Assembly: GCA_041576165.1 (NCBI GenBank)
Contig: JBFGLM010000064.1
Coordinates: forward strand, 1-24,169
Source of the DNA: Acidimicrobiia bacterium
Lineage (GTDB): Bacteria > Actinomycetota > Acidimicrobiia > Spongiisociales > Spongiisociaceae
Direction: 5' to 3'
Length of the DNA: 24,169 nt
The notes below the pieces were generated by a model. It did no database searches. It saw only the letters and a program-made list of their open reading frames with translations, and was not told the origin of the DNA. Made by a program: the position numbers and the translations under genes. Of this stretch, positions 3,068-14,260 are shown piece by piece (the first letter of the stretch is position 1; each line of letters starts with the position of its first letter).

Positions 3068-5335
3068 GTGACCGTGGTGGATCGACCGGCGCCGTTCATT
3101 CGGCCCGATGGCAAGGAGAAGGTGACGGGCACCGGCCGCTACACCGCCGACCTGAACCTGACCGGCCAGGCGCACGCCAAGTTCCGGTACACCGACCATC
3201 CCCATGCCCGCATTCTGCGGGTCGACACCAGCGCCGCCCGGGAGCTGCAGGGCGTCTTCGCGGTGCTCACTCAGGACGACGTACCGCACGTTCGCTACGG
3301 CGGTATGGCCAAGGACCGCTACCTGTTCGCTAAGGATGTCGTCCGCTGGGAGGGCGAGGTGGTCGCGGCGGTGGCGGCCGCCCCTCCGGAGATCGCGGCC
3401 CGGGCCGCCGAGCTGATCGATGTCGAATACGAGGTCCTTCCGCCCCTGCCCGATTTCGTCGCCAACATGCAAGAAGGGGCACCGCTGGTGCATACCGACT
3501 GGGAGTCGTACCGCGCCGACGACTCGCTGAACCGTTCCGGCAACATTCTGGGCCACTCGTCCATCGTCAAGGGCGACGCCGACGCCGCCATGGCCAAAGC
3601 CGACGCCGTGGTCAAGAGCCGCTACGTCAGCGACGCCTCCCAAGGGCTGCCGATCGAACCGCGCGCGATCCTTGCCGAGTGGAACGGCGACCGGGTCACG
3701 ATCTGGTCGTCCACCCAGGTGCCGTTTGCGGCCCGGAGCGGCGTGGCGACCACCCTGCAGATGTCCGAGTCGAAGGTGCGGGTGATCGTCCCGCTGCTCG
3801 GCGGAGGGTTCGGCTCGAAATGCGATTTCCACTTCGAGGCCCACGTTGCCGCCCTGGCCAGAGCGGCCCGGCGCCCGGTCAAGCTGGTGTTCTCCCGCGA
3901 AGAGGAGTTCATCGCGCCCGACCATCGCCGGGAAGGCATGGTGATCGAACTGGAAACCGGCGTCCGGCGCGACGGCACGATCGTGGCGCGCCGCGGCACC
4001 CTGGTCCTCGACTCCGGCGCCTACTGCGGGGAAGGGGGCTTTTTCGCCCAGATGGCGGCGATGCACGTCTGCGGCCCCTACCAGCTGGAGAACGTCAACA
4101 TCCACTCCTACCTCAACTATTCGACCAACCAGCCGTCCAGCTCCGTCCGGGCACCAACTGCGCCCCAAGCGTGCTGGGCGCTCGAACAGCACATGGACGA
4201 AGTGGCGGCGGCCATCGACATGGACCCGGCCGAGCTGCGGCGTCGAACCCTGATCGAGGAGGGCGCCCACGGTCCCACCGGCCAGGTATTCGAGAAGATC
4301 GGGGCCAAGGAAACGCTCGAAGCGGCGTTAGAGATGATCGGCTACGGCCAGGACCTGCCCGACGACGAAGGCATCGGCATCGCATGTGGCTGGTGGCCCT
4401 GTTTCGGATCGCCGTCGGGCGCCTACGTGAAGCTCAACGAGGACGGCACCGGAACGATCATCACCGGTGCGATGGAGTCGGGCACCGGCGCCGTCATGGG
4501 CCTCCCCATCCTGGCAGCCGAGGTCCTTGGCATGCGGCCCGAAGATTTCTCGATCACCTATCAGGACACCGACGTCGGGCCATGGGACATGGGCTCGTCC
4601 GGTTCCCAAACCACTTTCAACAACGGGCGAGCGGTGGTGGAGGCCGCCAAGGAGGTGCGCGACCGGCTGCTCGACCTCGGCGCGATCCACTTCGAGGCCA
4701 GCCGCGACGACCTCGAGCTGGTCGACGGCCAGGTACGGGTCAAGGGTTCACCCACCTCGACGGTGGAGATCGCCAAACTCGCCGGCGGCGGTGATCCGAT
4801 TCTGGGCAAAGGCTTCGGCGAGATTCCGGAAAACCCGCCGGTCGACACCTCCTACTGCGTAGGGGTCATCGGAGTCGAATCCTTTCTCGCGCCGCAGCTG
4901 ATAACCCACGCCGCCCGGGTCAAGATCGACCGGGCCACCGGTGTGGTGCGGGTGCTGGCCATCGCGGCTGCTCACGACTCGGGCGTGATCATCAACCGCA
5001 TCGGCGCCGACGGTCAGGTTTATGGCGGGGTCATGATGGGAGTCGGCCAGGCCCTGTCGGAGGTGTCGATGTTCGACGAGGAAGGCCGCCAGCGGAACCC
5101 GGCGCTGCTCGACTACAAGCTCCAGACGGTGGCCGACGCTCCGGCGATCGACATCCGCTGGATCGAGATCGCCACCCCCAACGCCGGACCCAAAGGCTCG
5201 AAGGGTGTGGGCGAACCGCCCAGCGTTCCCACCCCGGGCGCGATCGGCAACGCCATCGCCCAGGTCATCGGGCGCCACGTCGCCCAGCTCCCCATGACCC
5301 CTGAGCGGGTGTGGGCGACGATCCAGGAATCCTGA
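3068..5335 (+). CDS. Xanthine dehydrogenase family molybdopterin-binding (large) subunit
   Basis: KVTGTGRYTADL, STQVPF, GGGFGSK, GQVYGG, DYKL and KGVGEP motifs; GGGGAGG RBS. Confidence 0.92.
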   Translation: MTVVDRPAPFIRPDGKEKVTGTGRYTADLNLTGQAHAKFRYTDHPHARILRVDTSAARELQGVFAVLTQDDVPHVRYGGMAKDRYLFAKDVVRWEGEVVAAVAAAPPEIAARAAELIDVEYEVLPPLPDFVANMQEGAPLVHTDWESYRADDSLNRSGNILGHSSIVKGDADAAMAKADAVVKSRYVSDASQGLPIEPRAILAEWNGDRVTIWSSTQVPFAARSGVATTLQMSESKVRVIVPLLGGGFGSKCDFHFEAHVAALARAARRPVKLVFSREEEFIAPDHRREGMVIELETGVRRDGTIVARRGTLVLDSGAYCGEGGFFAQMAAMHVCGPYQLENVNIHSYLNYSTNQPSSSVRAPTAPQACWALEQHMDEVAAAIDMDPAELRRRTLIEEGAHGPTGQVFEKIGAKETLEAALEMIGYGQDLPDDEGIGIACGWWPCFGSPSGAYVKLNEDGTGTIITGAMESGTGAVMGLPILAAEVLGMRPEDFSITYQDTDVGPWDMGSSGSQTTFNNGRAVVEAAKEVRDRLLDLGAIHFEASRDDLELVDGQVRVKGSPTSTVEIAKLAGGGDPILGKGFGEIPENPPVDTSYCVGVIGVESFLAPQLITHAARVKIDRATGVVRVLAIAAAHDSGVIINRIGADGQVYGGVMMGVGQALSEVSMFDEEGRQRNPALLDYKLQTVADAPAIDIRWIEIATPNAGPKGSKGVGEPPSVPTPGAIGNAIAQVIGRHVAQLPMTPERVWATIQES

Positions 5336-5336
5336 G

Positions 5337-6230
5337 ATGATCACCTACCTCGAAGCCGCCAGCGTCGAGCAGGCGGTCGCGGCCATGGCCGACGGTGCTC
5401 GCCCCATCGCCGGCGGTACCGACCTGGTGGTCGGCGCCCGCCAGGGCAAGGCGTCGCTGCCCGAGTCGCTGGTCGGCATCCACCGCATTGCCGGGCTCGA
5501 CACGATCACCGCCGAGGAAGCCGGGTGGCGGCTGGGAGCGCTCGTAACCCATCAGGCCATCGTCGAGCACCCCAACATCAGAGCCGACTACACCGCACTG
5601 GCGGACGGTTCGGCCATCGTCGGGTCGCACGCAACCCGGGTACACGGGACAATTGGCGGCAACGTCATGAACGCCTCCCCGGCGATGGACACCGGTGCGC
5701 CGCTGCTGTGCTTCGGCGCGACGGCCACCTTGCACGGACCGGACGATTCCCGGGTGGTCGACCTGGCCGACCTGTGGACCGGACCCGGCGAAACCTCGGC
5801 TGCGCCGGACGAGCTGCTCACCTCCGTGGTGTTACCGCCGCCGCTCCCCGGTACCGGCAGCGCGTACGTTCGGCTCCAGTATCGCCGCCAGATGGAAATC
5901 GCAGTGGTGGGCGCGGCGGCAGCAGTGACGCTGGAGGGCGATACGGTGACCGACGCCCGGATAGCGATCGCCGCTTTGTCGCCCGTCATCATGCGGATCG
6001 CCGGCGCCGAACAAGCATTGATCGGCTCCCTGGCCGAGAACTCTGCGGTGGCGCAAGCGGCCCAGGCGGCCGCCGCCGCGGCCTCGCCGATCTCCGACGT
6101 CCGGGCGTCCGCCGACTACCGCCGAGCAATGGCCGCGGTCATGACCCGCCGGGCAATCCAGACCGCGGTCGCCCGGGCCCAGGGCCACGATATACCCATC
6201 CCCGCCAGCGACACCACGTTCGGGAGCTGA
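5337..6230 (+). CDS. Xanthine dehydrogenase family FAD-binding (medium) subunit
   Basis: IAGGTDL, TIGGNVMNASPAMD and PISDVRASADYR motifs; starts 1 nt after the large-subunit stop. Confidence 0.92.
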   Translation: MITYLEAASVEQAVAAMADGARPIAGGTDLVVGARQGKASLPESLVGIHRIAGLDTITAEEAGWRLGALVTHQAIVEHPNIRADYTALADGSAIVGSHATRVHGTIGGNVMNASPAMDTGAPLLCFGATATLHGPDDSRVVDLADLWTGPGETSAAPDELLTSVVLPPPLPGTGSAYVRLQYRRQMEIAVVGAAAAVTLEGDTVTDARIAIAALSPVIMRIAGAEQALIGSLAENSAVAQAAQAAAAAASPISDVRASADYRRAMAAVMTRRAIQTAVARAQGHDIPIPASDTTFGS

Positions 6231-6232
6231 GC

Positions 6233-6700
6233 ATGCGCTATCCCATCACCCTCATCGTCAACGGCACTGCCTACCCGATCGAGGTCCCGGCCGACAAGAG
6301 TTTGCTCTATGCGGTCCGTGACGACGTCGGTCTGACCGGCTCCAAGGAGGGGTGCGACGACTCGGAGTGCGGCGCCTGCATGATGCTCCTCGACGGCCGA
6401 CCGGTGAACTCGTGCTCGTACCTGGCCGTGCAAGCAGACGGTTCGAGCGTCACCACGGTGGAGGGCCTGGCCGCCGGCGGGCTCGATCTCTCGCCGCTGC
6501 AAGCAGCCTTCTTGACCGAAGGCGGGGTGCAGTGCGGCTTCTGCACCCCGGGCATGCTGATATCGGCGACTGCGCTGCTGACCGCAAACCCCAACCCGTC
6601 CGAGGACGAAATCCGCATCGGTTTGTCGGGCAACCTGTGCCGGTGCACCGGCTACGAAGGCATAGTCCGCGCGGTCCAGCAGGTGGCCCAACAGGAGTGA
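6233..6700 (+). CDS. Xanthine dehydrogenase family 2x[2Fe-2S] (small) subunit
   Basis: GSKEGCDDSECGAC, QCGFCTPG and GNLCRCTGY; the real start is the ATG at 6233 (MRYPITLIVNG), inside the track ORF 5525-6700. Confidence 0.93.
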   Translation: MRYPITLIVNGTAYPIEVPADKSLLYAVRDDVGLTGSKEGCDDSECGACMMLLDGRPVNSCSYLAVQADGSSVTTVEGLAAGGLDLSPLQAAFLTEGGVQCGFCTPGMLISATALLTANPNPSEDEIRIGLSGNLCRCTGYEGIVRAVQQVAQQE

Positions 6701-6806: not shown

Positions 6807-7010
6807 CCCCCTCCCATGATTTCCCGGGCGGGGGAGGCGGATTCGGCGACGAATAGGAGCCGCAGCCGGAGAGGGAGCGCGGCACGGCGCGACGAGATGG
6901 CGCCCTCCACGATTTCCACCCCGCGGCGGGCGGAGGACATGTGACCGTTACGTGCCGCAAGAGAACGCCCTCTCCGCCCCTTCAGGGCACCTCCCCTTTC
7001 CGGGGGACGG
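6807..7010. repeat. Inverted pair of REP-like palindromic elements in a convergent intergenic region
   Basis: GGGGAGG (6831-6837)...CGGAGAGGG (6867-6875) is mirrored by CCCTCTCCG (6968-6976)...CCTCCCC (6990-6996); each copy has small internal hairpins. Confidence 0.45.
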
Positions 7011-7036
7011 AGCGCGGGTGGATTCGGCGCGGACGA

Positions 7037-7687
7037 TCACATACCTGGCAATCCGATAGTCAGGTACGCCAACCCGACCACCACGAGCAGTGGGACCGCC
7101 AGCACCACTCGTTTGACCAGGGTTGGAGCGGGCACGCCCTGGACCCGGGGAGCGAACGTCACCGAAAACGCCCAGGCCTCCAACGCAATCATGGGGGCGT
7201 ACCAGACGGATGCGATCGCCATCTCGGTCGTGGTCATGCGCCAGTTGTCACCGAACGCCGATTGCAGGACGGGGATCTGAATAGCGGCCGCCGCCAACAG
7301 CAACAAAGGTCGGAGCCAGCGGGGGCGTGGCCGAGCGAAACCGATCGCGCCCAGGATCACCGACGGCCACATAACCGCCCCGCCTGCCCCGAGCAAGACC
7401 AAGCTAAGCGCCGACAGTCGCCACCATCCCACGCCGCCCGCACGGCGCCGCCACCACGCCACGCCCAGCAGCGAACCGACAATCACGCTGGCTCCCAGAA
7501 TGAAGAGGGTTCCCGACCAGGAAAACTCGGGGTGCGCCGAGATGTACCTCATCCACACCCGCATAGCCACGCCCCACACCAGCCCGACTGCGGCACCCGT
7601 GAATATCGGATGAAGACGAGCCCTACGTGATAGCACCTCAATCGCTGAATCGACCACCACCAGGCTCCTTCGACTAGGTCCGTTCAT
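7037..7687 (-). CDS. Hypothetical multi-pass membrane protein
   Basis: Several hydrophobic segments (GAAVGLVWGVAMRVWMR, FSWSGTLFILG...). ATG 7687 chosen because it lies 6 nt after a CGTC -10 element, suggesting a leaderless mRNA. Confidence 0.75.
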   Translation of the reverse strand: MNGPSRRSLVVVDSAIEVLSRRARLHPIFTGAAVGLVWGVAMRVWMRYISAHPEFSWSGTLFILGASVIVGSLLGVAWWRRRAGGVGWWRLSALSLVLLGAGGAVMWPSVILGAIGFARPRPRWLRPLLLLAAAAIQIPVLQSAFGDNWRMTTTEMAIASVWYAPMIALEAWAFSVTFAPRVQGVPAPTLVKRVVLAVPLLVVVGLAYLTIGLPGM

Positions 7688-7693
7688 CAAACA

Positions 7694-7721
7694 GACGAGC
7701 CAGCGCTCAGGCTGGGTGACA
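7694..7721 (-). promoter_or_regulatory. Putative ECF sigma promoter TGTCACC-N17-CGTC
   Basis: Minus strand reads TGTCACC-cagcctgagcgctggct-CGTC-tgtttg-ATG; the same motif and spacing occur at 22582-22609. Confidence 0.55.
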
Positions 7722-7748
7722 TACAGGCACACACACCCTCCGATGCCG

Positions 7749-10700
7749 TCACGCCTGGCTGAGGGTGGCCCCGATGCGGGTGGCGCTAGCGGTTGCGCCC
7801 AACTCCCGGTAGATACGCGCAGCGTGGCGAGCCGCCGCGTCGCATTCAGTCGGATCGCGGGTCAACTTCGCTTGGAGCTCCCACAGGCTGGCTTCGTCCC
7901 AGCGTTCGCCCCAACGTTGTGCTCGATCGATACCACGGCGCACGATCCGGAGCGCCTTGCGCCTGCGATCGCGGACCAGCCGGGCGTGGCCGCGCATGAT
8001 CGCGACTCGGGGGCGCGCATACGGAAGAATGATCCCGAAGATGCGCAACTTCAGAATGGCTCGGAAGGCAGCTCGCTTGACGCGTCCGGTGATCAAAGAC
8101 GGTTCCTCATCCCACAGCCGGTAGATCACGGAGAGGGCGCCCGTGTACGCAACGAGCTGAGGGAAGATCGGTGACAGGGCGATTCCGTTCAGCGAATCTA
8201 CCGCCGCCGCCATCGCTGACCGACTGTCCCCGGCGCGGATGAGTGCCTGCGCCCGAGCCGCATGAAGGATCGGGACCGTGGCCTGGTCGGCCGTCCGGAC
8301 CAAGCTGTTTGCTTCGTTCGCCCAGGCCGTCGCTGTCTGGTCGTCTCCAGTTTCGTACAACAGCGGTGTGCCCAGGGCCACCGCCCAAGCGGTGTGCTCG
8401 ATGTTGCGGCGCCGCTCCGCCGAGACTCGTAGCAGCCGGTACTCCTGGCACGCCTCCCCCAGATGACGACTCATCATCAGCGCCTGACCGCGCAGCGCCC
8501 GAACGATCTCCATGGTGTAGTCGTCTCGGCGGAGCCGGCAATTCTGTTCGGCCTCGGCGAACGATGCCATCGCCTCTTTCCATTCGCCGAAGCACAGCTG
8601 GTACGAGCCGCGCGAGTTGGCGGCGGCCACGTCGTGGGGAGGCAGTGCGGCCGACTGTCGCCATTCGTCACCCGTGCCGCGGCTGTCCGCCTTGAGTTCC
8701 TCGGCGGTACGCGCAGCCAAGTTGTAGGTCTCGGCGGCTCGCCGCAGGCGCATGAGCCGGGCACCGTAACTCAGGCTGCTGTAGGCGAGCCCGGCAGCCG
8801 CCGGGCGGCCCGCTCGTTCCGCCAGATTGATCGACAGCAGGTTGAAGAGCGTGAACCGCAGGCTGTCGACGCTGAAGTAGTAGACCTCACCGACAAGCGA
8901 ACAGATGCGCGCAGCGAGCGCTAGTCGAGCCGTGTCCTTGGACGGCGAGACCCGGGTCCGACGGGCGGTCCGGCCGGTCATGTAGTGGAGCACCTGTACG
9001 CACAGCTCCCAAACAACGCGGATGCCGACCGCAGCAGACCGACGGGGCGTCCGAACACGAAGTTCTCTCAGCGCGGTCTGGTGATGGGTTAGCGCTCTCT
9101 CGAGTTCGCCCGTATCCATCAACGCGATCCCGAGTTGAGCATGCCAGTACCCACGCCGGTGCGGCTCGACCGCAGGATCGGCCACCTCCAGCGCCTGCTG
9201 GAAAAGACTGATGGCCTCCCGGCTGGCCCCTCGATCGAGTGCGTCTTCGCCGGCCAGTTCGAGATGATGGATGGCCTCCAGCAGTTTGCCGGCCCGGAGG
9301 GCGTGATAGGCCAGCATGGCGTGTTGGCGGCTGCCGGCATCGGACAGCGCGTCGAACATCGTGGCATGTATCGTCCGCCGCAGCGCATCGGGGATCATGT
9401 CGTAGACCGCTTCCTGGATGAGGGCGTGCCGGAACGAGTACGTGCCGTCGCCGCGAGCGGTGAAAAGTTCGGCCGATACGAGTTCGGCCAAGGTGTCCCC
9501 AAGCCCGCCGCCCGGCGCAGTCGCTCCGAGCGCGACCGCCACCGATTCGGGCGAGAAGGTGCGGCCGAGAGTGCTGGCGGTCTTCAGCGTCAGCTCGGCC
9601 GTGGGCGTGAGCCGGTCCAGCCGGCTCGCCACCAGACCGTGGACCGAGTTGGTCAACCGGATATCCGCCGGCCATTCGCCTGCAGCCGTGCGGGAGTCCC
9701 TGATGGCGATCGCCAGCTGCTCGGTCAGCAACGGGTTGCCGCCCGCCTTGTCGGCAATGGCGTCCGCCACCTCGTCGGGCAATTCGTCAACCCCCAGCTC
9801 GCGCGCCGCCAATTGCGCCGCCTGGCGATCGGAGAGGCTCGCTGGCCGCCACACCACCGGCGGTTCAACTTGAGTCCAGGTGATCCCGGGCGCCGGCGAC
9901 TCGTCCCGGCTGGCTGTCACGGTGAGGACCGGCTGCACACCCGCCACCGCCTCGCGGAGCAGGCTGAGAGATGCTGCGTCGAGCCAATGGGTATCGTCGA
10001 AAATCAGCAACAGCGGAGCCTTGTGGGCGGCCCGCCGGAGAAGCGCCAGCACTGCAGAGGATACGGCCTGCTTGCGAGCAGTAGCCGCCAGCCGCACGGT
10101 GGCCGGACTGTCTTCCAGGCCCAGATCCAGGAGGGGATCGAGCGCCGGACTCATCTCGTTCATCCCGCCGAGGGTGGCGAGGAAGGCGTGCGCTGCTTCC
10201 CGCCGCTCCGCCTGGGATGCCGCCGCACCCAGATCTAGCAGGTCACGCACGATCATCCTCCAACCGCTGTACGGGCTGTTACGGAGGATCGGGTCGCCCG
10301 CGCCGACGAGCGGGCGCAGACCGGCGTCCTCGCCGCGAGTGATAGCTTCCCGCAAGAGTCGGGTCTTACCAATGCCCGGTTCGCCGATGATCGTGACCAG
10401 CCGGGAACGGCCGGACCGGCCCACATCCGCAATCAGCTGATCCAGTAGGGCGAGTTCCCGCTCCCGCCCGATGGTGGTTGCCACCGTTTCGTGGTCCAGG
10501 ACCGCTTCCGCGGCCGTCGTCTGCCACAGCGGGCGCCAGGCGGTGGTGTGCGGGCCGGCCTTGGTGACAACATCCGGCCGCCGCGAGAATTTCACACGAG
10601 TTTGGGCAGCTGAGACGGAATCGCTGTCTACAAGAACTTCATTGTGCGAAGCCTGCATCAGCCCCGCTGCGCGGTTCATCACCGATCCAATCGTGGTGTA

Positions 10701-11792
10701 CTGGCGAAACGCGTCCGACCCATACGCTCCGCAGAACGCGCGCCCTGTCGCCACCCCGATGCCGAACTCCTGACGGGTGTTGAGAAGCCGGCTCGCAATG
10801 GCGAGCGCCGCCCCGGTCGCCCGCACGGCATCGTCCTCATGCGCCCGCGGCGGCAGGCCGAACGTGCCGATCATGGTTGCGCCCTTGTCGTCTATGGACA
10901 CCTTGTCAAGGCACCCCTCAAACCGATCAAGTTCCTCCTGCCAGGCCGACACCGCACGGTTGAGCGCGCGGCCGTCGTCCTCGCGTTCGATGTTCAATTC
11001 CCGCAGGTTGACGAACACACTGGTGATGAGCCGCAACTCCGCCAACCAGTCGCCGGTCTCGACCCGATGCAAGACAGGTTCCGGCAGATAGGCCGCAGCG
11101 GAAGCTCCAACAGAGGGCCGGTCGGCGGGGACAGGAACCGGTGGCGGCGGATCGACCGCGTGGATCGTCACGTTCACTCCCCGCGGCTCGCCCCGAGCAT
11201 GCGCGGCCAGGAGCGCCCAGGCTTGCGGCGATGCGACTACCTCCCGAGGCTTGGCGGCGTTGATGGTTCCCGGAATCTGTGAGGTGGGATCGCCACCGAG
11301 CAAGAAAACCCAGCGGTCCAGGTGCCCACCCACCTCGAGAAACCGTCCGGCCCCGCAGGTGACACCCATGCGGACGTCAAGCCCATGGCGGATCATTGGC
11401 TCCAGCTGCGGAACGTTTTTGGCGAGCAACAGACCGCAACGGGCGGCCCGGATCGTCGCCTGGGCGAGCGCTTCCGGTTGCTCCGCACTCCACAGCGCGG
11501 TGATCGAGTCACCGGAGAACCCGAGCACCTCGCCGGCCCAATGATTGTGCACGTCGTCAATGATCGGCTGGAAGATCGCGTTGAGCAGGGCCATCAGCCT
11601 GTCGGCCGCGCGGGGACCTTCGGTCGCCAGTTCCTCACCGACGCGTGTGAATCCCGAGATGTCCAGGTACAGCAGGGCGGCCTGAACCGGCTCCGACGTC
11701 CATGACGTAGCGACACCTCTACGGGACAGCCGGGATCGGAGGGCTCCGTTCACGAAGCTATTGAGCAGATCGGGGTCCTGCACGCTTGACAC
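7749..11792 (-). CDS. Soluble adenylyl cyclase-like STAND protein: tandem class III nucleotidyl cyclase domains, P-loop NTPase and TPR-like C-terminus
   Basis: C1 LYLDISGFT and FSGDS; C2 DKVSIDDKG, FGLPPRAHEDD and QYTTIGSVMNRAAGLM; Walker A GEPGIGKT; Walker B LLIFDDTHWLD; GGNPL; FRHALIQEAVY; helical Ala/Leu-rich repeats. Start may instead be GTG 11783. Confidence 0.9.
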   Translation of the reverse strand: MSSVQDPDLLNSFVNGALRSRLSRRGVATSWTSEPVQAALLYLDISGFTRVGEELATEGPRAADRLMALLNAIFQPIIDDVHNHWAGEVLGFSGDSITALWSAEQPEALAQATIRAARCGLLLAKNVPQLEPMIRHGLDVRMGVTCGAGRFLEVGGHLDRWVFLLGGDPTSQIPGTINAAKPREVVASPQAWALLAAHARGEPRGVNVTIHAVDPPPPVPVPADRPSVGASAAAYLPEPVLHRVETGDWLAELRLITSVFVNLRELNIEREDDGRALNRAVSAWQEELDRFEGCLDKVSIDDKGATMIGTFGLPPRAHEDDAVRATGAALAIASRLLNTRQEFGIGVATGRAFCGAYGSDAFRQYTTIGSVMNRAAGLMQASHNEVLVDSDSVSAAQTRVKFSRRPDVVTKAGPHTTAWRPLWQTTAAEAVLDHETVATTIGRERELALLDQLIADVGRSGRSRLVTIIGEPGIGKTRLLREAITRGEDAGLRPLVGAGDPILRNSPYSGWRMIVRDLLDLGAAASQAERREAAHAFLATLGGMNEMSPALDPLLDLGLEDSPATVRLAATARKQAVSSAVLALLRRAAHKAPLLLIFDDTHWLDAASLSLLREAVAGVQPVLTVTASRDESPAPGITWTQVEPPVVWRPASLSDRQAAQLAARELGVDELPDEVADAIADKAGGNPLLTEQLAIAIRDSRTAAGEWPADIRLTNSVHGLVASRLDRLTPTAELTLKTASTLGRTFSPESVAVALGATAPGGGLGDTLAELVSAELFTARGDGTYSFRHALIQEAVYDMIPDALRRTIHATMFDALSDAGSRQHAMLAYHALRAGKLLEAIHHLELAGEDALDRGASREAISLFQQALEVADPAVEPHRRGYWHAQLGIALMDTGELERALTHHQTALRELRVRTPRRSAAVGIRVVWELCVQVLHYMTGRTARRTRVSPSKDTARLALAARICSLVGEVYYFSVDSLRFTLFNLLSINLAERAGRPAAAGLAYSSLSYGARLMRLRRAAETYNLAARTAEELKADSRGTGDEWRQSAALPPHDVAAANSRGSYQLCFGEWKEAMASFAEAEQNCRLRRDDYTMEIVRALRGQALMMSRHLGEACQEYRLLRVSAERRRNIEHTAWAVALGTPLLYETGDDQTATAWANEANSLVRTADQATVPILHAARAQALIRAGDSRSAMAAAVDSLNGIALSPIFPQLVAYTGALSVIYRLWDEEPSLITGRVKRAAFRAILKLRIFGIILPYARPRVAIMRGHARLVRDRRRKALRIVRRGIDRAQRWGERWDEASLWELQAKLTRDPTECDAAARHAARIYRELGATASATRIGATLSQA

Positions 11793-11800
11793 CCTCGCCC

Positions 11801-11817
11801 TAGCCTCAATGAGGCTA
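11801..11817. promoter_or_regulatory. Perfect palindrome TAGCCTCA-A-TGAGGCTA in the divergent spacer (operator and/or paired -10 boxes)
   Basis: 8-bp arms with a 1-nt spacer; TAGCCT (TANNNT) occurs on each strand; lies in the 55-bp gap between divergent start codons. Confidence 0.6.
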
Positions 11818-11847
11818 CCCGGTGCAAAGCGCGCAGGACGGGAGTGA

Positions 11848-12768
11848 ATGGAGACGGCCTACGCAGCCGAACGGGTCGGGCGCCGCCTGCTCGACCTGGC
11901 GGACAGGTTGGGCTCGGAGCTTGGTCCCAGCCTACGTTCCTTGCTGGCCAGGCTCGGGTTTGATGACGTTGCTGCGCTCCTGCATCCCCTCGGCCAGCCG
12001 ATCATCCAGATTCCACTCTGGACGGCGGAGGCGCTCGCTCCCCGGTGCCCGGTCGCCGACGATCAGCTGCTTGATCTGATCGAAGCCGCTGCGGCGGGGT
12101 ACCTTCACGTCCGGATCCAGGACGACCTCGTGGATGGGGACGCCGCAGGCGATCCGATCCGCGACATGTTCCTCAGCGACGCATTGCTGATCCGCCATCA
12201 GTCGCTGGTCGCCCAGGCGGTCGGTTCCCCAAGTCGCTTCTGGAACCGCTTTGAACAGCTGGCTTTCGACTACGGCCACGCCATGTTGTTCGAGCGGGGG
12301 CTCCATCGCGACGGGACGTACTCGCGGACCGAGTTCCGGCAGGTGATGAATCGCTCGATGCCCCTGGCCATCCCAGCTCTGGCGGTTCTCGAGTTAGGGA
12401 GTCGATGGGAGTTGGCGGAGGATGTGGTCAGGTTCGTGCGTCATGCCGTCACCGCAGGTCAGCTGATAGACGATCTACGTGATGCCGTTGCCGACTTTGA
12501 CGCCGGGCGCCGGACGTGGGTGACCGTCCAACTGGGAAGCGATCACGGACGCGATGCCGTGTTGGTTTCGCTTGGCCTGGGCGGGTTTGACCGTGTGATC
12601 CGGGAGGTGGAGCGTGAGGTCGAGCAAGCCCGCCTCGTGGCCCGGCGGTGCGGGCTCATGACAGCAACGCGCTGGCTGGAGATGCGTCTCGCCGGGGTGG
12701 GGATGATGAGGGATTCGTTCGCTGCGGCATTGGCGGCCGCACCAGCCCCTCGCAAATCAAGGGACTAG
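11848..12768 (+). CDS. Class I isoprenoid-biosynthesis-fold enzyme (polyprenyl synthase/prenyltransferase/terpene synthase-like)
   Basis: Predicted helical 306-aa protein with HVRIQDDLVDGD (first Asp-rich motif) and GQLIDDLRDAVADFDAGRRT (second); GGGAG RBS. It lacks the RRG that follows the first motif in chain-elongating synthases. Confidence 0.75.
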   Translation: METAYAAERVGRRLLDLADRLGSELGPSLRSLLARLGFDDVAALLHPLGQPIIQIPLWTAEALAPRCPVADDQLLDLIEAAAAGYLHVRIQDDLVDGDAAGDPIRDMFLSDALLIRHQSLVAQAVGSPSRFWNRFEQLAFDYGHAMLFERGLHRDGTYSRTEFRQVMNRSMPLAIPALAVLELGSRWELAEDVVRFVRHAVTAGQLIDDLRDAVADFDAGRRTWVTVQLGSDHGRDAVLVSLGLGGFDRVIREVEREVEQARLVARRCGLMTATRWLEMRLAGVGMMRDSFAAALAAAPAPRKSRD

Positions 12769-12789
12769 CTTCCGCCACGGAGGTGGGAG

Positions 12790-13131
12790 ATGACGCTACC
12801 CGGACCGGGCGAGGTCAACGAAGTTCCCGATACGGTGATCGGCCGTGCTGTGCGCGACCCCGGTTTTCGAACCCGAGTACTCGCCGCCGCCAACGAGGAG
12901 GCGATCAAAGCGATTGTGGAGGAAACACTGGGCATTGAGCTGGAGGATGCGGCTGCCCGACAGCTGAGCGCGTTGAACAAAGCTCGGGTGGAGGCGGCTC
13001 TTCAGGAGCTGCAGACGCAGGTCGGATCTCGAGTCGGCGGCCCGGTAGAGCCGTCGTGGCGTGGACGCGGCCGCCTTGACGTTGGTGGACGACCAGATGC
13101 CGGGTGCCGGATGGCTCGGGTCCGCCGGTGA
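12790..13131 (+). CDS. NHLP/Nif11-like small protein, candidate RiPP precursor 1
   Basis: Strong GGAGGTG RBS; VIGRAVRDPGFRTRVLAA resembles the NHLP-clan leader; clear paralog of 13225-13476. The tail after ...GSRVGG is uncertain. Confidence 0.7.
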   Translation: MTLPGPGEVNEVPDTVIGRAVRDPGFRTRVLAAANEEAIKAIVEETLGIELEDAAARQLSALNKARVEAALQELQTQVGSRVGGPVEPSWRGRGRLDVGGRPDAGCRMARVRR

Positions 13132-13224
13132 GCAGTGCGTGACGCAGTCGTTTGACGTCCAGTGAACTCCCGCTTCAGGGCAAGCAACGTGGACTAGCTT
13201 CTGTCATGACACGGGAGGTGTGCG

Positions 13225-13476
13225 ATGTCTCTACCAGGACACGGCGCCATCGACGAGGTACCCGACCAGGTCGTGGGCCGGGCCGTGCGCGACGCGGAAT
13301 TCCGGGATCAGCTTCTCGATGCGGCCACCGAGGCCGAAGTACAGGCTGCGGTGGCAGACGCGTTTCCGGGGATAGAACTGAGTTCTGATGCGGCCAACCA
13401 GATCTTGGCGCTCGACCGGAATCAGGTCGAGATCGCCCTGGCCGGTGTGCAGTACGGGAGGGCCTCTCTCGCGTAA
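13225..13476 (+). CDS. NHLP/Nif11-like small protein, candidate RiPP precursor 2
   Basis: GGAGGTG RBS; VVGRAVRDAEFRDQLLDA...GIELS...; aligns with precursor 1 along nearly its whole length; ends EIALAGVQYGRASLA. Confidence 0.75.
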   Translation: MSLPGHGAIDEVPDQVVGRAVRDAEFRDQLLDAATEAEVQAAVADAFPGIELSSDAANQILALDRNQVEIALAGVQYGRASLA

Positions 13477-14260
13477 TCACAGCCGACTTCGCCGCGCAGC
13501 CGACTTTTACGACGAATGGACCCCCGAATTCTTGGCTGAATGTGACGACGTCTTCCAGTCGGGCTTGCCGCTTCCCCGGGTGGCCCCCGAGACGGTCGGT
13601 GCGTCGATGAAGTTCATTGCTGCCGAGGCACAGATCGGGCCGGGCCACCATGTGCTCGATGCCGGCTGCGGAGTAGGTGGCCCGGCACGGATCATCGCCC
13701 GGTCGATCCCCGGCGTCATGGTCGACGGAGTCACGGTATCGGCAGTACAGGTTGCGGCAGGAAATGAGCTGAACGCCGAAGTCGGACTCGCCGACCGGGT
13801 ACGCCTGCATCTGGCGGACTATCACGCTCTCCCTTTTCGGGACGCCGCCTTCGACCGGGTACTCCTCCTGGAAGTCACCGGCTACAGCCCCGACCTGGAG
13901 GGCCTCTACCGTGAATTGAGCCGGGTGCTGGTCCCGGGAGGCTGGCTGTATGTAAAGGATGTGTTCAGCGCGGAGGGACCTCTCACCCCGAGCGAGGAGC
14001 GGGATCTCGAGGATTTCGACCGGATGTGGCACGTCGAGCGCTCCCCCACCATTACCGAGAGTGTGACCGCCATCCGCGCCGCGGGCCTGGCCAAAGTCGA
14101 ATCCGGCGAGTACGCCCGCGTTGGCATCGATCGCTTCCTCGGCGCAATGTTCCGCCTCTCAGGCGGATCAGTCGAATTGTCCACCCTCGGGCGCGGATTC
14201 TTGCGCACCTTCGAGTCGCTGCCGGTCGAGTTCGGCTGGATCCGGGCGCGCCGGCCGTGA
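13445..14260 (+). CDS. Class I SAM-dependent methyltransferase (tocopherol/sterol/GPP-methyltransferase-like), start uncertain
   Basis: N-terminal DFYDEW; motif I HVLDAGCGVGGPA; GVTVSAVQ; ADYHALPFRDAAFD; RVLVPGG. The nearest in-frame canonical start upstream of FYD is GTG 13445. Confidence 0.85.
   Translation: MCSTGGPLSRNHSRLRRAADFYDEWTPEFLAECDDVFQSGLPLPRVAPETVGASMKFIAAEAQIGPGHHVLDAGCGVGGPARIIARSIPGVMVDGVTVSAVQVAAGNELNAEVGLADRVRLHLADYHALPFRDAAFDRVLLLEVTGYSPDLEGLYRELSRVLVPGGWLYVKDVFSAEGPLTPSEERDLEDFDRMWHVERSPTITESVTAIRAAGLAKVESGEYARVGIDRFLGAMFRLSGGSVELSTLGRGFLRTFESLPVEFGWIRARRP

Follow-up and report, generated by a model that had tools for sequence, protein, structure and literature searches.

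A four-gene operon in an Acidimicrobiia bacterium and the large cyclase gene that faces it are read here, with modest confidence, as a cassette that lipidates ribosomal peptides and is coupled to a protein of cyclic-nucleotide signalling. The operon probably attaches prenyl and methyl groups to two small leader-type proteins. The enzyme-precursor core of this system is not new, since peptide prenyltransferases of the same fold have been characterised in PalQ/PalX/PalP (2023) and ChrPC (2024). Methyltransferase tailoring, tails without tryptophan and a conserved coupling to a cyclase are apparently new.

Layout of the locus

The window is the whole stretch of 24,169 nt that was analysed (assembly GCA_041576165.1, contig JBFGLM010000064.1, positions 1 to 24,169, forward strand; GTDB lineage Bacteria; Actinomycetota; Acidimicrobiia; Spongiisociales; Spongiisociaceae). 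An open reading frame check of 7749-14260 places the cyclase-NTPase-repeat gene P0001 head-to-head with an operon whose products are a DDxxD enzyme, a pair of paralogous small proteins and a class I methyltransferase. All five reading frames lie where the initial annotation had put them, with the gene content that it gave to the operon and the divergent gene, and the 55 bp that it reported between the two start codons correspond to 11793-11847. Both promoters, and any shared control site, must by prediction fall within this interval. Neither a peptidase nor an exporter is encoded in the cluster at 7749-14260, a point against the lipidated-peptide reading. The features are as follows.

7749..11792, minus strand: P0001, 1347 aa, a full-length relative of soluble adenylyl cyclase (sAC), with tandem cyclase domains, a STAND NTPase and TPR-like repeats
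11142..11687, minus strand: cyclase domain C1, P0001 residues 36-217, aligned to human ADCY10 residues 41-222
10590..11117, minus strand: cyclase domain C2, P0001 residues 226-401, aligned to ADCY10 residues 259-440
9933..10472, minus strand: STAND-type P-loop NTPase, P0001 residues 441-620 (AAA_16, 1.2e-22, 81.6 bits)
7752..9251, minus strand: TPR-like helical repeat region and presumed sensor module, P0001 residues 848-1347, from the ortholog profile
11793..11847, no strand: divergent intergenic region, 55 bp between start codons
11848..12768, plus strand: P0002, 306 aa, a trans-isoprenyl-diphosphate-synthase-fold enzyme (from fold and motifs) and predicted peptide prenyltransferase
12790..13131, plus strand: P0003, 113 aa, NHLP-clan small protein A, residues 1-~80 homologous to the family by sequence comparison
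13225..13476, plus strand: P0006, 83 aa, NHLP-clan small protein B by sequence comparison, with the tail ...AGVQYGRASLA and no Trp
13445..14260 (frame open from 13388), plus strand: class I SAM methyltransferase, with a Methyltransf_11 match

The cassette: enzyme, small proteins and methyltransferase

P0002 carries the motifs QDDLVD (residues 91-96) and IDDLRD (207-212), which contribute a first Asp-rich motif (D92/D93/D96) and, after Q205, a second one (D208/D209/D212). It matches no Pfam or NCBIfam model, polyprenyl_synt (PF00348) included, and PF00348 touches only one of 84 members of its family. The AF2 model of P0002 (pLDDT 96.6) superposes on polyprenyl diphosphate synthases with a VIA Z of 24.0 (rmsd 2.6 Å, 272 residues) and reaches a TM of 0.68-0.70 in Foldseek, both comparisons returning chain-length synthases as structural neighbours. 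Together with a match of the family profile to PDB 4lob (9.7e-7), these results bear out the isoprenoid-synthase fold that had been assigned to the DDxxD enzyme. The profile alignment to 4lob covers the first Asp-rich motif (VHDDVVDE in 4lob) and the Q-x-x-(D)D-x-x-D of the second; D92, D96, Q205, D209 and D216 are each at least 90% conserved among the 84 family sequences. A review (PMC13290415) gives as a class trait a conserved Gln that directly precedes the second Asp-rich motif. Q205 aligns with the FQ of 4lob and does not discriminate peptide prenyltransferases, because canonical synthases have this Gln as well. After the first Asp-rich motif, the family has an 11-residue gap opposite the RRG-containing loop of 4lob, and it thus lacks the loop that in chain-elongating synthases follows this motif and binds diphosphate and IPP. 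The family counts 285 representatives at E<=1e-3, one member being fused to a radical SAM/SPASM protein.

P0002 is proposed to be a trans-IDS-like prenyltransferase of the ComQ, PalQ or ChrPC-P kind. Its first Asp-rich motif would bind an allylic prenyl diphosphate, and the site occupied by IPP in true synthases would take the short C-terminal tails of P0003 and P0006, whose folded NHLP leaders would dock on the enzyme.

P0003 and P0006 are 48% identical, in keeping with their description as paralogs, and both genes are preceded by GGAGG-like sites and a common GGACTAGCTTC word. Against NF038399 (Os1348 NHLP clan) they score 27.0 and 27.6 bits, respectively, under a cut-off of 40; of 20 small-protein family members, 18 match this model at E<=0.01 (best 1.9e-21) and 16 match TIGR03793, which supports the NHLP kind proposed for these proteins. 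They are the only NHLP-like genes in their genome. The Arg/Gly-rich tail of P0003 (13021-13131, the last ~37 codons) is doubtful: GC by codon position is.84/.73/.59 there versus.77/.44/.69 in the rest of the frame, and the tail has no counterpart in any relative compared. The single Trp and the single Cys of P0003 both lie in it.

Across the family, some 10 variable residues without a Cys/Ser/Thr-rich core follow the conserved NHLP domain, and no universal nucleophile occurs in the tails compared. Tails end in KWG in six related loci, and those of many other loci lack Trp. According to the review PMC13290415, the few characterised enzymes of the class (ComQ, PalQ, ChrPC) all act on Trp, and two tails lacking a secure Trp downstream of P0002 count against the prenyl reading. 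The same feature, recurring in a large family without any database model, could mean that P0002 and its relatives extend the range of reactions by which enzymes lipidate peptides.

The methyltransferase frame at 13388-14260 matches Methyltransf_11 at 1.3e-16, confirming the class I enzyme annotated at the end of the operon. Similarity to its orthologs begins at frame residues 34-40. Because no ATG, GTG or TTG occurs between the P0006 stop and that point, translation probably starts at the GTG at 13445, with a 32 nt overlap with P0006, or alternatively at 13388. Orthologs 41-48% identical are found in 11 of 23 related loci, where they overlap or abut the peptide gene, and the P0002-family enzymes of these loci form one clade (support 95/96). 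The nearest solved relatives act on small molecules, which weighs against the peptide reading; they are MitM (4.6e-24), a glucose O-methyltransferase, and the C-methyltransferases of GPP and FPP. The best NCBIfam match, GPP 2-C-methyltransferase (NF041943, 1.5e-15), scores 57.8 bits versus a cut-off of 400. Translationally coupled to the P0006 gene, the methyltransferase would then tailor the same product, either on the peptide or on the prenyl group.

The sAC-like partner

Full-length sAC is built of a C1-C2 cyclase pair, a P-loop NTPase and TPR-like repeats, and P0001 has the same order, its C1-C2 pair being collinear with that of human ADCY10. The single sequence aligns to ADCY10 in two collinear stretches (E 2.2e-30) and the ortholog profile matches it at 1.2e-68, versus 7.6e-23 for the next best cyclase. 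The cyclase-NTPase-TPR architecture of the initial annotation stands, except that its one cyclase part is a tandem pair of domains. C1 has the metal-binding Asp motifs DISGFT and FSGD, both Asp being invariant in 9 of 9 orthologs. Catalysis presumably requires these two metal-binding Asp of C1 and a Lys, an Asn and an Arg of C2. C2 of P0001 keeps the DDKG Lys and the Asn, whereas the Arg of the NxxxR motif, retained in 8 of 8 orthologs, is Gly in P0001 alone (MNRAAG); the cyclase may thus be weakly active. Gly also replaces the Lys of the ADCY10 LKFAGD motif, which has a role in bicarbonate binding in sAC.

The NTPase has Walker A (GEPGIGKT) and Walker B (LLLIFDD) motifs that are conserved among the orthologs and, to judge from its sequence, is a MalT-type STAND NTPase. 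For the repeats, the TPR label fares less evenly. Taken as a single sequence, P0001 falls below the Pfam cut-off (16.9 vs 30.1 bits), with sub-threshold TPR_12/TPR_7 at residues 848-913, and its repeat region has no PDB sequence match. The eight-ortholog profile does support TPR: its positions 850-950 align with consensus TPR proteins, and positions 1124-1249 with MalT domain III (E 0.009). Among Pfam and NCBIfam matches to P0001 there is no DNA-binding domain. The repeat/NTPase module most likely would respond to the modified peptide and switch the synthesis of cAMP or cGMP; going by gene neighbourhood, the TPR region might bind the peptide and the signal might be intracellular.

Related loci and comparable systems

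Co-occurrence was counted over 23 loci related to the P0002 cassette, from Acidimicrobiia, Myxococcota and proteobacterial MAGs. The gene next after the enzyme gene encodes an NHLP-like homolog of ~70 aa in 20 of them, and a cyclase-domain gene lies within the examined flanks of 19. The association of enzyme, small proteins, methyltransferase and cyclase posited from this one locus thus recurs in two phyla, with the cyclase gene in five arrangements: divergent, downstream co-directional, convergent, upstream co-directional, or as a separate protein with hydrophobic N-terminal segments. One linked cyclase type of 485 aa, with such segments, has a quite different sensor part. Two of the four loci without a cyclase are cut by contig ends, one (L009) has complete flanks and none, and one (L021) has a weak partial match only. 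The size of the enzyme family and the frequency of small proteins beside the enzyme make the arrangement more than chance. The pairing of cassette and cyclase in distant bacteria suggests an undescribed link of lipidated peptides with cyclic-nucleotide signalling, and a literature search returned no published genetic link of sAC or cyclase-STAND proteins to a peptide-modification cassette.

A sister architecture is found in 8 of the 23 loci, where the peptide gene is followed by that of a protein of 600-680 aa bearing QW motifs as well as GDDCAA. MstE, a class II terpene cyclase, is the best match to its model (E 5e-7, TMt 0.68), and this protein takes the place of the methyltransferase. One related locus has a P450, PhyH and a MatE exporter instead. 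This conserved swap at a single operon position (methyltransferase, MstE-like terpene cyclase, or P450 plus dioxygenase) would serve as a natural experiment on prenyl tailoring.

PalP-PalX-PalQ of Paenibacillus alvei (Miyata, Ito, Fujinami 2023; PMC10853753) is a characterised peptide prenyltransferase system that likewise joins a sensor, an NHLP-type precursor with a short core and a ~300-aa isoprenoid-synthase-superfamily prenyltransferase that databases miss. The earlier statement that no characterised system has the combination seen here must therefore be given up for sensor, precursor and prenyltransferase, and can apparently be kept for the methyltransferase and the cyclase coupling. As published, PalQ has a FARM (D89/D93), Q197 and a SARM (D200/D204) (PMC10853753), and it shares with P0002 the order DxxxD, ~110 residues, then Q-x-x-D-x-x-x-D. 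PalX consists of a 72-aa NHLP leader and an 8-aa core (PMC10853753), so a tail of ~10 residues can suffice. PalP is a histidine kinase, whereas the sensor of the window is a soluble sAC-like cyclase-STAND-TPR protein; the window also adds a methyltransferase and has two precursors. PalQ strictly needs the C-terminal Trp (PMC10853753), in contrast to the window, where the tails are ...GRASLA or the doubtful Arg/Gly-rich extension.

ChrPC (2024, Chem) is described in the review PMC13290415 as a fusion in which a trans-IDS-like P domain attaches a prenyl group to a ribosomal peptide and a C domain of the class II cyclase type tailors that group. Its P+C logic, so described, is mirrored by the sister loci, where both activities are present as separate genes flanking the NHLP gene; the loci examined here contain no P-C fusion, and in the window the position of the terpene cyclase is filled by the class I methyltransferase. 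The published precedents of PalQ/PalX (PMC10853753) and, as reviewed in PMC13290415, ChrPC, together with the sister MstE-like enzyme, lend support to the original ComQ-type reading.

ComQ-ComX also pairs an isoprenoid-synthase-fold enzyme with a small ribosomal precursor, prenylated in its short C-terminal part, and a sensor gene is adjacent. ComP and ComA are the sensor kinase and regulator of the ComX pheromone circuit in Bacillus quorum sensing. Unlike the window, that system has a two-component output and an exported pheromone, and its ComX leader does not resemble NHLP. The second Asp-rich motif, of which the P0002 family keeps part, is missing from ComQ (PMC10853753). Another large protein with cyclase, NTPase and repeats is the subject of TIGR03903, whose model positions 341-928 align with P0001 residues 304-878. 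The model, 'TOMM system kinase/cyclase fusion protein', presumably owes its name to a place beside NHLP-type RiPP clusters. Membership was rejected at 142 bits versus a cut-off of 705.75; P0001 has no Pfam kinase domain, the kinase being replaced by the second cyclase domain. In yeast, a-factor undergoes prenylation and then carboxyl methylation. Such eukaryotic CaaX processing (PMC10853753 for the CaaX part) resembles the cassette in placing a prenyltransferase and a methyltransferase near a protein C-terminus, and it provides a template for a lipidated tail with a methyl cap, but its enzymes have unrelated folds, its acceptor is Cys, and the window has no aaX protease. Two further assignments were set aside: a GPP C-methyltransferase and terpene synthase pair of the 2-methylisoborneol type, given the score of 57.8 bits versus 400 and the chain-length synthases around P0002, and Pycsar, for which the PycC match (3.2e-11) covers the generic cyclase core and the window offers no effector-like gene.

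Gene association accommodates equally a P0001 that senses the product and a P0001 that controls the operon. The latter, which we consider rather unlikely, would leave the cassette as described and make P0001 an upstream regulator of the MalT/LAL type: its repeats would sense another metabolite or nucleotide state, and its control of the facing operon, and of further genes, would run through cAMP and a CRP-type factor whose gene lies elsewhere. AAA_16 is the NTPase module of MalT/LAL regulators, the ortholog profile touches MalT domain III, and divergent promoters 55 bp apart are typical for a regulator and its target. At one locus (L006), moreover, the neighbour of the cassette encodes a classical AAA_16-TPR-LuxR regulator, which has an HTH but lacks a cyclase, and the genome of the window (G000) carries another sAC-like STAND gene on contig C53 that no cassette accompanies. 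Against regulation stand the missing DNA-binding domain and the adjacent sensor kinase of published relatives, which is part of a pheromone circuit (PalP, PMC10853753). The cyclase linkage also persists with quite different sensor parts such as the 485-aa type, a pattern that fits a receptor equally well.

It is improbable that the product of P0002 and the methyltransferase is a free methylated isoprenoid, with the NHLP-like proteins as non-substrate partners such as small regulatory subunits or chaperones. Such a product would be a terpene or a non-canonical prenyl diphosphate, on the pattern of the pathways with GPP or FPP C-methyltransferases. That view draws on the GPP 2-C-methyltransferase match and the GPP and FPP C-methyltransferases among the PDB relatives, on the tails without a conserved nucleophile, and on the top Foldseek match of P0002, a hexaprenyl diphosphate synthase that works as a heterodimer and depends on a small second subunit. 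The GPP match, however, covers the Rossmann core only, and MitM and sugar O-methyltransferases are better PDB matches; PalQ and, according to PMC13290415, ChrPC are peptide prenyltransferases of the same fold. The missing loop in P0002 and the membership of the small proteins in the NHLP clan, known for its RiPP leaders, point the same way. Far less probable still is anti-phage defence, with a Pycsar-like or Avs-like cyclase-STAND sensor that detects infection and a cassette that supplies the effector. STAND NTPases are common defence sensors, and PADLOC models match P0001 residues 35-168 (PycC) and P0005 (mads methyltransferase, 3.8e-14). The PycC match is nevertheless that of a generic class III cyclase and far poorer than the match to human sAC (about 2e-30 single, 1e-68 profile), and P0002, P0003 and P0006 have no PADLOC match. 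No cNMP-binding effector, phage gene or mobile-element gene was seen in the window, and the variable tailoring enzymes, exporter and peptidases of the sister loci suggest a natural-product cluster.

For the favoured peptide-lipidation reading, a bolder form can be drawn that we regard as unlikely. This full-length bacterial sAC counterpart would use its STAND/TPR module to receive, in the cytoplasm, an NHLP protein of ~70-80 aa that comes from the facing operon and carries prenyl and methyl groups; with no protease or exporter, the system would be an intracellular lipoprotein-to-cAMP switch with a non-tryptophan acceptor, its methyltransferase activating or capping the lipid tail. If true, the C-terminal half of sAC-type cyclases would gain its first class of ligands. 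We know of no ligand or role established for the NTPase/TPR half of these enzymes. The cyclase link is the most unusual part of the locus, and the window's partner has the full sAC domain order; a genetically paired candidate ligand makes the question testable in a small bacterial system.

Layout and conservation of the cassette

All five open reading frames of the initial annotation, and the 55-bp gap, were recovered in place:

7749-11792, minus strand: P0001, cyclase-STAND NTPase-repeat protein (1347 aa)
11793-11847: intergenic gap between P0001 and P0002 (55 bp)
11848-12768, plus strand: P0002, DDxxD enzyme and predicted peptide prenyltransferase (306 aa)
12790-13131, plus strand: P0003, NHLP-clan small protein and putative precursor (113 aa)
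13225-13476, plus strand: P0006, paralog of P0003 (83 aa)
13388-14260, plus strand: class I methyltransferase, open frame

The window is one entire contig of 24,169 bp (G+C ~66%), in which ordinary genes flank the cassette: those for a CoxLMS-type molybdenum hydroxylase, SDR, Kef-type antiporter, MBL-fold protein and class III aminotransferase. The last four of these, and both ORFs of 6941-7732, have no counterpart in the 20 related loci compared. Since the flanking genes are found in no related locus, the boundaries of the cassette are those first proposed, 7749-14260.

The initial annotation had asked whether these genes co-occur across genomes, and they do. Among 23 loci holding relatives of P0002 (L002-L021 and L029-L031), an NHLP-like gene is present in 20, a cyclase-domain gene lies nearby in 19, and orthologs of the methyltransferase (41-48% identical) directly follow the peptide gene on its 3′ side in 11, their ORFs overlapping or abutting it. 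A full-length ortholog of P0001 (26-36% identical, ~1300 aa) adjoins the enzyme gene in 11 of the 23. Nine Acidimicrobiia loci have it divergent from the enzyme gene; in two proteobacterial MAGs it lies downstream, and in L031 upstream, each time co-directional. At L002, a convergent gene of 899 aa bears a cyclase domain at its N-terminus. Seven further loci, from Sorangium, other Myxococcota or proteobacterial MAGs, encode a ~485-aa protein whose C-terminal cyclase domain matches strongly (4e-29 and 1.2e-21, two copies scanned) and whose N-terminal half contains several hydrophobic stretches; for that half, an atlas match provides a lead toward a MASE-type membrane sensor. Four loci showed no cyclase gene: L006, where the sequence ends 376 bp past the preceding gene; L012, whose contig is just 1.8 kb long; L021, itself a weak and partial match; and L009, whose flanks are complete. 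At L009:5266-12471 (Polyangiaceae), the enzyme and NHLP genes are followed by genes for a cytochrome P450, a PhyH dioxygenase and a beta-lactamase-fold protein, with a MatE exporter upstream. The cassette at L006:5024-7945 (Egibacteraceae) neighbors a classical AAA_16-TPR-LuxR (LAL-type) regulator rather than a cyclase-bearing STAND protein.

A divergent prenyl synthase fold and its putative precursors

As a single sequence, P0002 matches no Pfam or NCBIfam model, and its one match among PDB sequences is at chance level (E 0.71). A word-index homolog search gave four relatives, and exhaustive phmmer gave 285 cluster representatives at E<=1e-3, with 40 at E<=1e-30. Ten residues are at least 90% conserved in an 84-sequence alignment of the family: W58, G84, Y85, D92, D96, E149, R169, Q205, D209 and D216. 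The profile of this alignment matches the polyprenyl synthetase 4lob at 9.7e-7, pairing the family motif vQDDllD with VHDDVVDE and ahQlfnDlvDaekD with AFQIIDDILDYTSD. The AlphaFold model of P0002 (pLDDT 96.6) superposes on trans-isoprenyl diphosphate synthases, or trans-IDS, of the long- and medium-chain kinds with Z 24.0 and an rmsd of 2.6 Å over 272 residues, at a TM of at most 0.70. Judged by this predicted structure, P0002 is a divergent trans-IDS, and the isoprenoid fold originally assigned to it is borne out by superposition and profile alike. The donor-binding first Asp-rich motif and the Gln are kept, and the second Asp-rich motif is partly kept. An 11-residue gap falls at the position of the RRG-containing loop of 4lob; in true synthases, the loop after the first Asp-rich motif helps to bind the diphosphate and IPP.

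Some family members are fused to other domains. In P0155, the enzyme domain is followed by a radical SAM domain (a SPASM protein by its source name), and in P0146 it is preceded by a SnoaL-like domain. At L004, a stand-alone SnoaL-like gene is found past the STAND gene; it falls in a gene cluster shared with L005, L008 and L019, the domain scan having been run on the L004 copy only. Two other fusions gave no Rosetta-stone clue: P0030 has 400 additional aa without a match at the sister loci or in Pfam, and P0009 shows a fragmentary match to AEP-TOTE in its N-terminal part.

P0003 and P0006 are 48% identical. Taken alone, both fall below the cut-offs of Frankia_peptide (22.2 and 21.0 bits, respectively; cut-off 48) and of NF038399, ‘Os1348 family NHLP clan’ (27.0 and 27.6 bits; cut-off 40), and their description as NHLP-like precursors gains its footing from the family. 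A homologous ORF of ~70 aa with a good ribosome-binding site lies 3′ of the enzyme gene in 18 of 20 reference-genome loci and two of three further loci. NF038399 recognises 18 of 20 such small proteins (best 1.9e-21), and TIGR03793, the model for NHLP leaders, recognises 16. The motif ELIGRAVxDxxFRxRLLxDP is common to all of these proteins, with a helical region after it, and just ~10 variable residues extend beyond the conserved domain. The tails end in ...AKWG, ...SKWG or ...TKWG at six Acidimicrobiia loci, and elsewhere in ...FLAS, ...NLAS, ...RKAAG, ...RKAAS or ...GGVGM. P0006 ends in ...GVQYGRASLA and contains no Trp, and the family comparison found no nucleophile common to all tails; both points count against the proposal. 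The C-terminus of P0003 carries ~37 extra codons of a composition unlike coding sequence, matched in no relative. The word GGACTAGCTTC occurs at 12764-12775, taking in the P0002 stop codon, and again at 13191-13202, upstream of P0006. This repeat is the scar of the tandem duplication that gave both precursors, and similarity between the duplicated copies stops at about column 290 of the alignment. No further member of this peptide family was found in the genome holding the window.

In a tree of 22 enzymes, built without the partial match L021 and without the two divergent L031 paralogs, those from methyltransferase loci form one clade of 12 rows, split from the other 10 with 95/96 support. The KWG group is a subclade within the tree (100/100), and P0002 groups with the enzymes of L002 and L003 (86/88), whose peptide tails likewise lack Trp.

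Peptide prenylation by enzymes of this fold has precedents. PalQ of Paenibacillus alvei (UniProt K4ZRG6), an isoprenoid-synthase-superfamily enzyme labelled a terpene synthase in databases, prenylates PalX at its C-terminal Trp; PalX is a precursor of NHLP type made up of 72 leader and 8 core residues, and the third gene of the cluster encodes a histidine kinase (PMC10853753). A 2026 review puts ComQ and PalQ in one group with the P domain of ChrPC, that of the trans-IDS-like peptide prenyltransferases, and gives Trp as the acceptor of all those characterised; it also states that ChrPC uses its C domain to cyclise the prenyl group once attached, and likens the C domain of the related NctPC to MstE (PMC13290415). 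Set beside the published description of PalQ (FARM D89/D93, Q197, SARM D200/D204; PMC10853753), P0002 has the same fold and spacing (D92/D96, Q205, D208/D212) and the same kind of precursor. The P plus C logic of ChrPC, as the review presents it, also recurs at sister loci of P0002, there as separate genes. By analogy with PalQ and with ChrPC so described, these features lend peptide prenylation strong, circumstantial support, and P0002 probably prenylates the NHLP small proteins on their tails.

Putative tailoring genes at a shared operon position

The methyltransferase is a class I enzyme (Methyltransf_11, 1.3e-16). Its closest solved relatives are MitM (4.6e-24), a glucose O-methyltransferase (5.4e-22) and PDB 3bus (2.2e-18), with GPP and FPP C-methyltransferases lower among the PDB matches, from ~4e-10. 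These nearest solved relatives are natural-product methyltransferases; that they act on small molecules counts against the proposal. PDB 5gm1, also among its relatives, we take to be TleD, which methylates a prenyl double bond. Two known pathways were set aside. A daptide-type pathway was suggested by the methyltransferase, SDR and class III aminotransferase of the window, and the latter two lack counterparts at 20 loci; the defining features of a 2-methylisoborneol-like pair of GPPMT and terpene synthase failed.

At eight of the 23 loci, a 600-680-aa protein with no Pfam match takes the place of the methyltransferase 3′ of the peptide gene. Its alignment shows invariant QxxDGGWG and QLxDGSW together with a GDDCAA motif, and an atlas match to squalene-hopene-cyclase repeats (score 0.94) serves as a lead only. 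A structural model (pLDDT 73.7) best matches MstE, a class II terpene cyclase of the monodomain kind (E 5e-7, TMt 0.68, 19-20% identity), with myxobacterial monodomain cyclases also among the best matches. A papain-like or M50 peptidase often lies upstream. L031 (G288:C51:16500-36000) holds a full-length P0001 ortholog (26% identical) followed by a divergent enzyme paralog, and on the other strand an MstE-like gene and a second paralog; a motif scan found no NHLP-like ORF there.

In this family, a single operon position is filled by one of three putative tailoring options, a methyltransferase, oxygenases or a proton-initiated terpene cyclase, which suggests that tailoring is aimed at the prenyl group itself. 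A methyl cation and a proton attack a double bond in chemically parallel ways. In the proposed pathway, the methyltransferase would act on the prenylated product of P0002, a step somewhat favored by the present evidence. The cassette of the window has neither peptidase nor exporter, as first noted, and encodes soluble proteins only, which fits an intracellular product. The sister type, with its peptidases and a cyclase bearing hydrophobic N-terminal segments, fits a product that is processed and sensed at the membrane.

The cyclase protein and the setting of the locus

Residues 36-217 and 226-401 of P0001 are collinear with C1 and C2 of ADCY10, the human soluble adenylyl cyclase or sAC (E 2.2e-30), and a profile of eight orthologs matches ADCY10 at 1.2e-68, the runner-up cyclase scoring 7.6e-23. 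Conservation extends to the C1 Asp motifs DISGFT and FSGD, the C2 Lys (DDKG) and the C2 Asn. All eight orthologs have the Arg of NxxxR, for which the window's copy has Gly, a point against the proposal. Next in P0001 comes a STAND NTPase of the AAA_16 type whose Walker motifs are intact, and then a repeat region that, in an ortholog profile search, matches TPR proteins and, weakly, MalT domain III; a single-sequence search of the C-terminal 917 aa gave no match among PDB sequences. Neither a transmembrane segment nor a DNA-binding domain was found in P0001. TOMM kinase/cyclase fusions and Pycsar were both considered and rejected, as their defining features failed.

The recurrence of a cyclase gene beside the enzyme makes it very likely that this protein is functionally tied to the cassette. 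Gene association cannot give a direction between the two. The cyclase protein could be the receptor of the cassette product, as first proposed, or could with equal probability regulate the operon; each of these roles is less likely than not. Of the original picture, a prenylated and/or methylated peptide sensed by the divergent protein, the folds, motifs, family relations and gene association hold, while the prenyl transfer, the target of methylation and the role of the cyclase are what we infer from them. Its claim to be a combination without a characterised precedent holds in part: the enzyme-precursor core is of a kind already described in 2023-2024, while methyltransferase tailoring, Trp-less tails and conserved nucleotide-cyclase coupling, here to a full-length STAND protein of sAC type, were not found in the literature searched, the 2024 ChrPC paper (Hubrich) lying outside the scope of that search.

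The P0002 family is rare and patchy, occurring in six of 401 genomes sampled from the window's class, in five of 48 sampled from the neighboring family and in none of the five sampled from its own. The metagenome-assembled genome holding the window (5.1 Mb, 161 contigs, contamination 7.5%) is larger and more contaminated than these five same-family genomes (2.3-2.8 Mb), which makes the host assignment of the contig uncertain; possible explanations are a mixed bin and horizontal gain of the contig. The same genome carries a second sAC-like tandem-cyclase gene (G000:C53:1110-2183, locus L035; 27% identical over residues 34-393, open frame 1314 aa), which has no adjacent prenyltransferase gene, as the genome has only one copy. 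Within the window, 6941-7732 holds a pair of ORFs (229 and 231 aa) that overlap on opposite strands just downstream of P0001; neither has a Pfam match. The molybdenum hydroxylase operon spans 3068-6700, and its three genes encode the large MoCo-binding, FAD and 2Fe-2S subunits; the ORF at 5525-6700 probably starts much later than listed, since its Fer2 and Fer2_2 matches are confined to the last ~150 residues.
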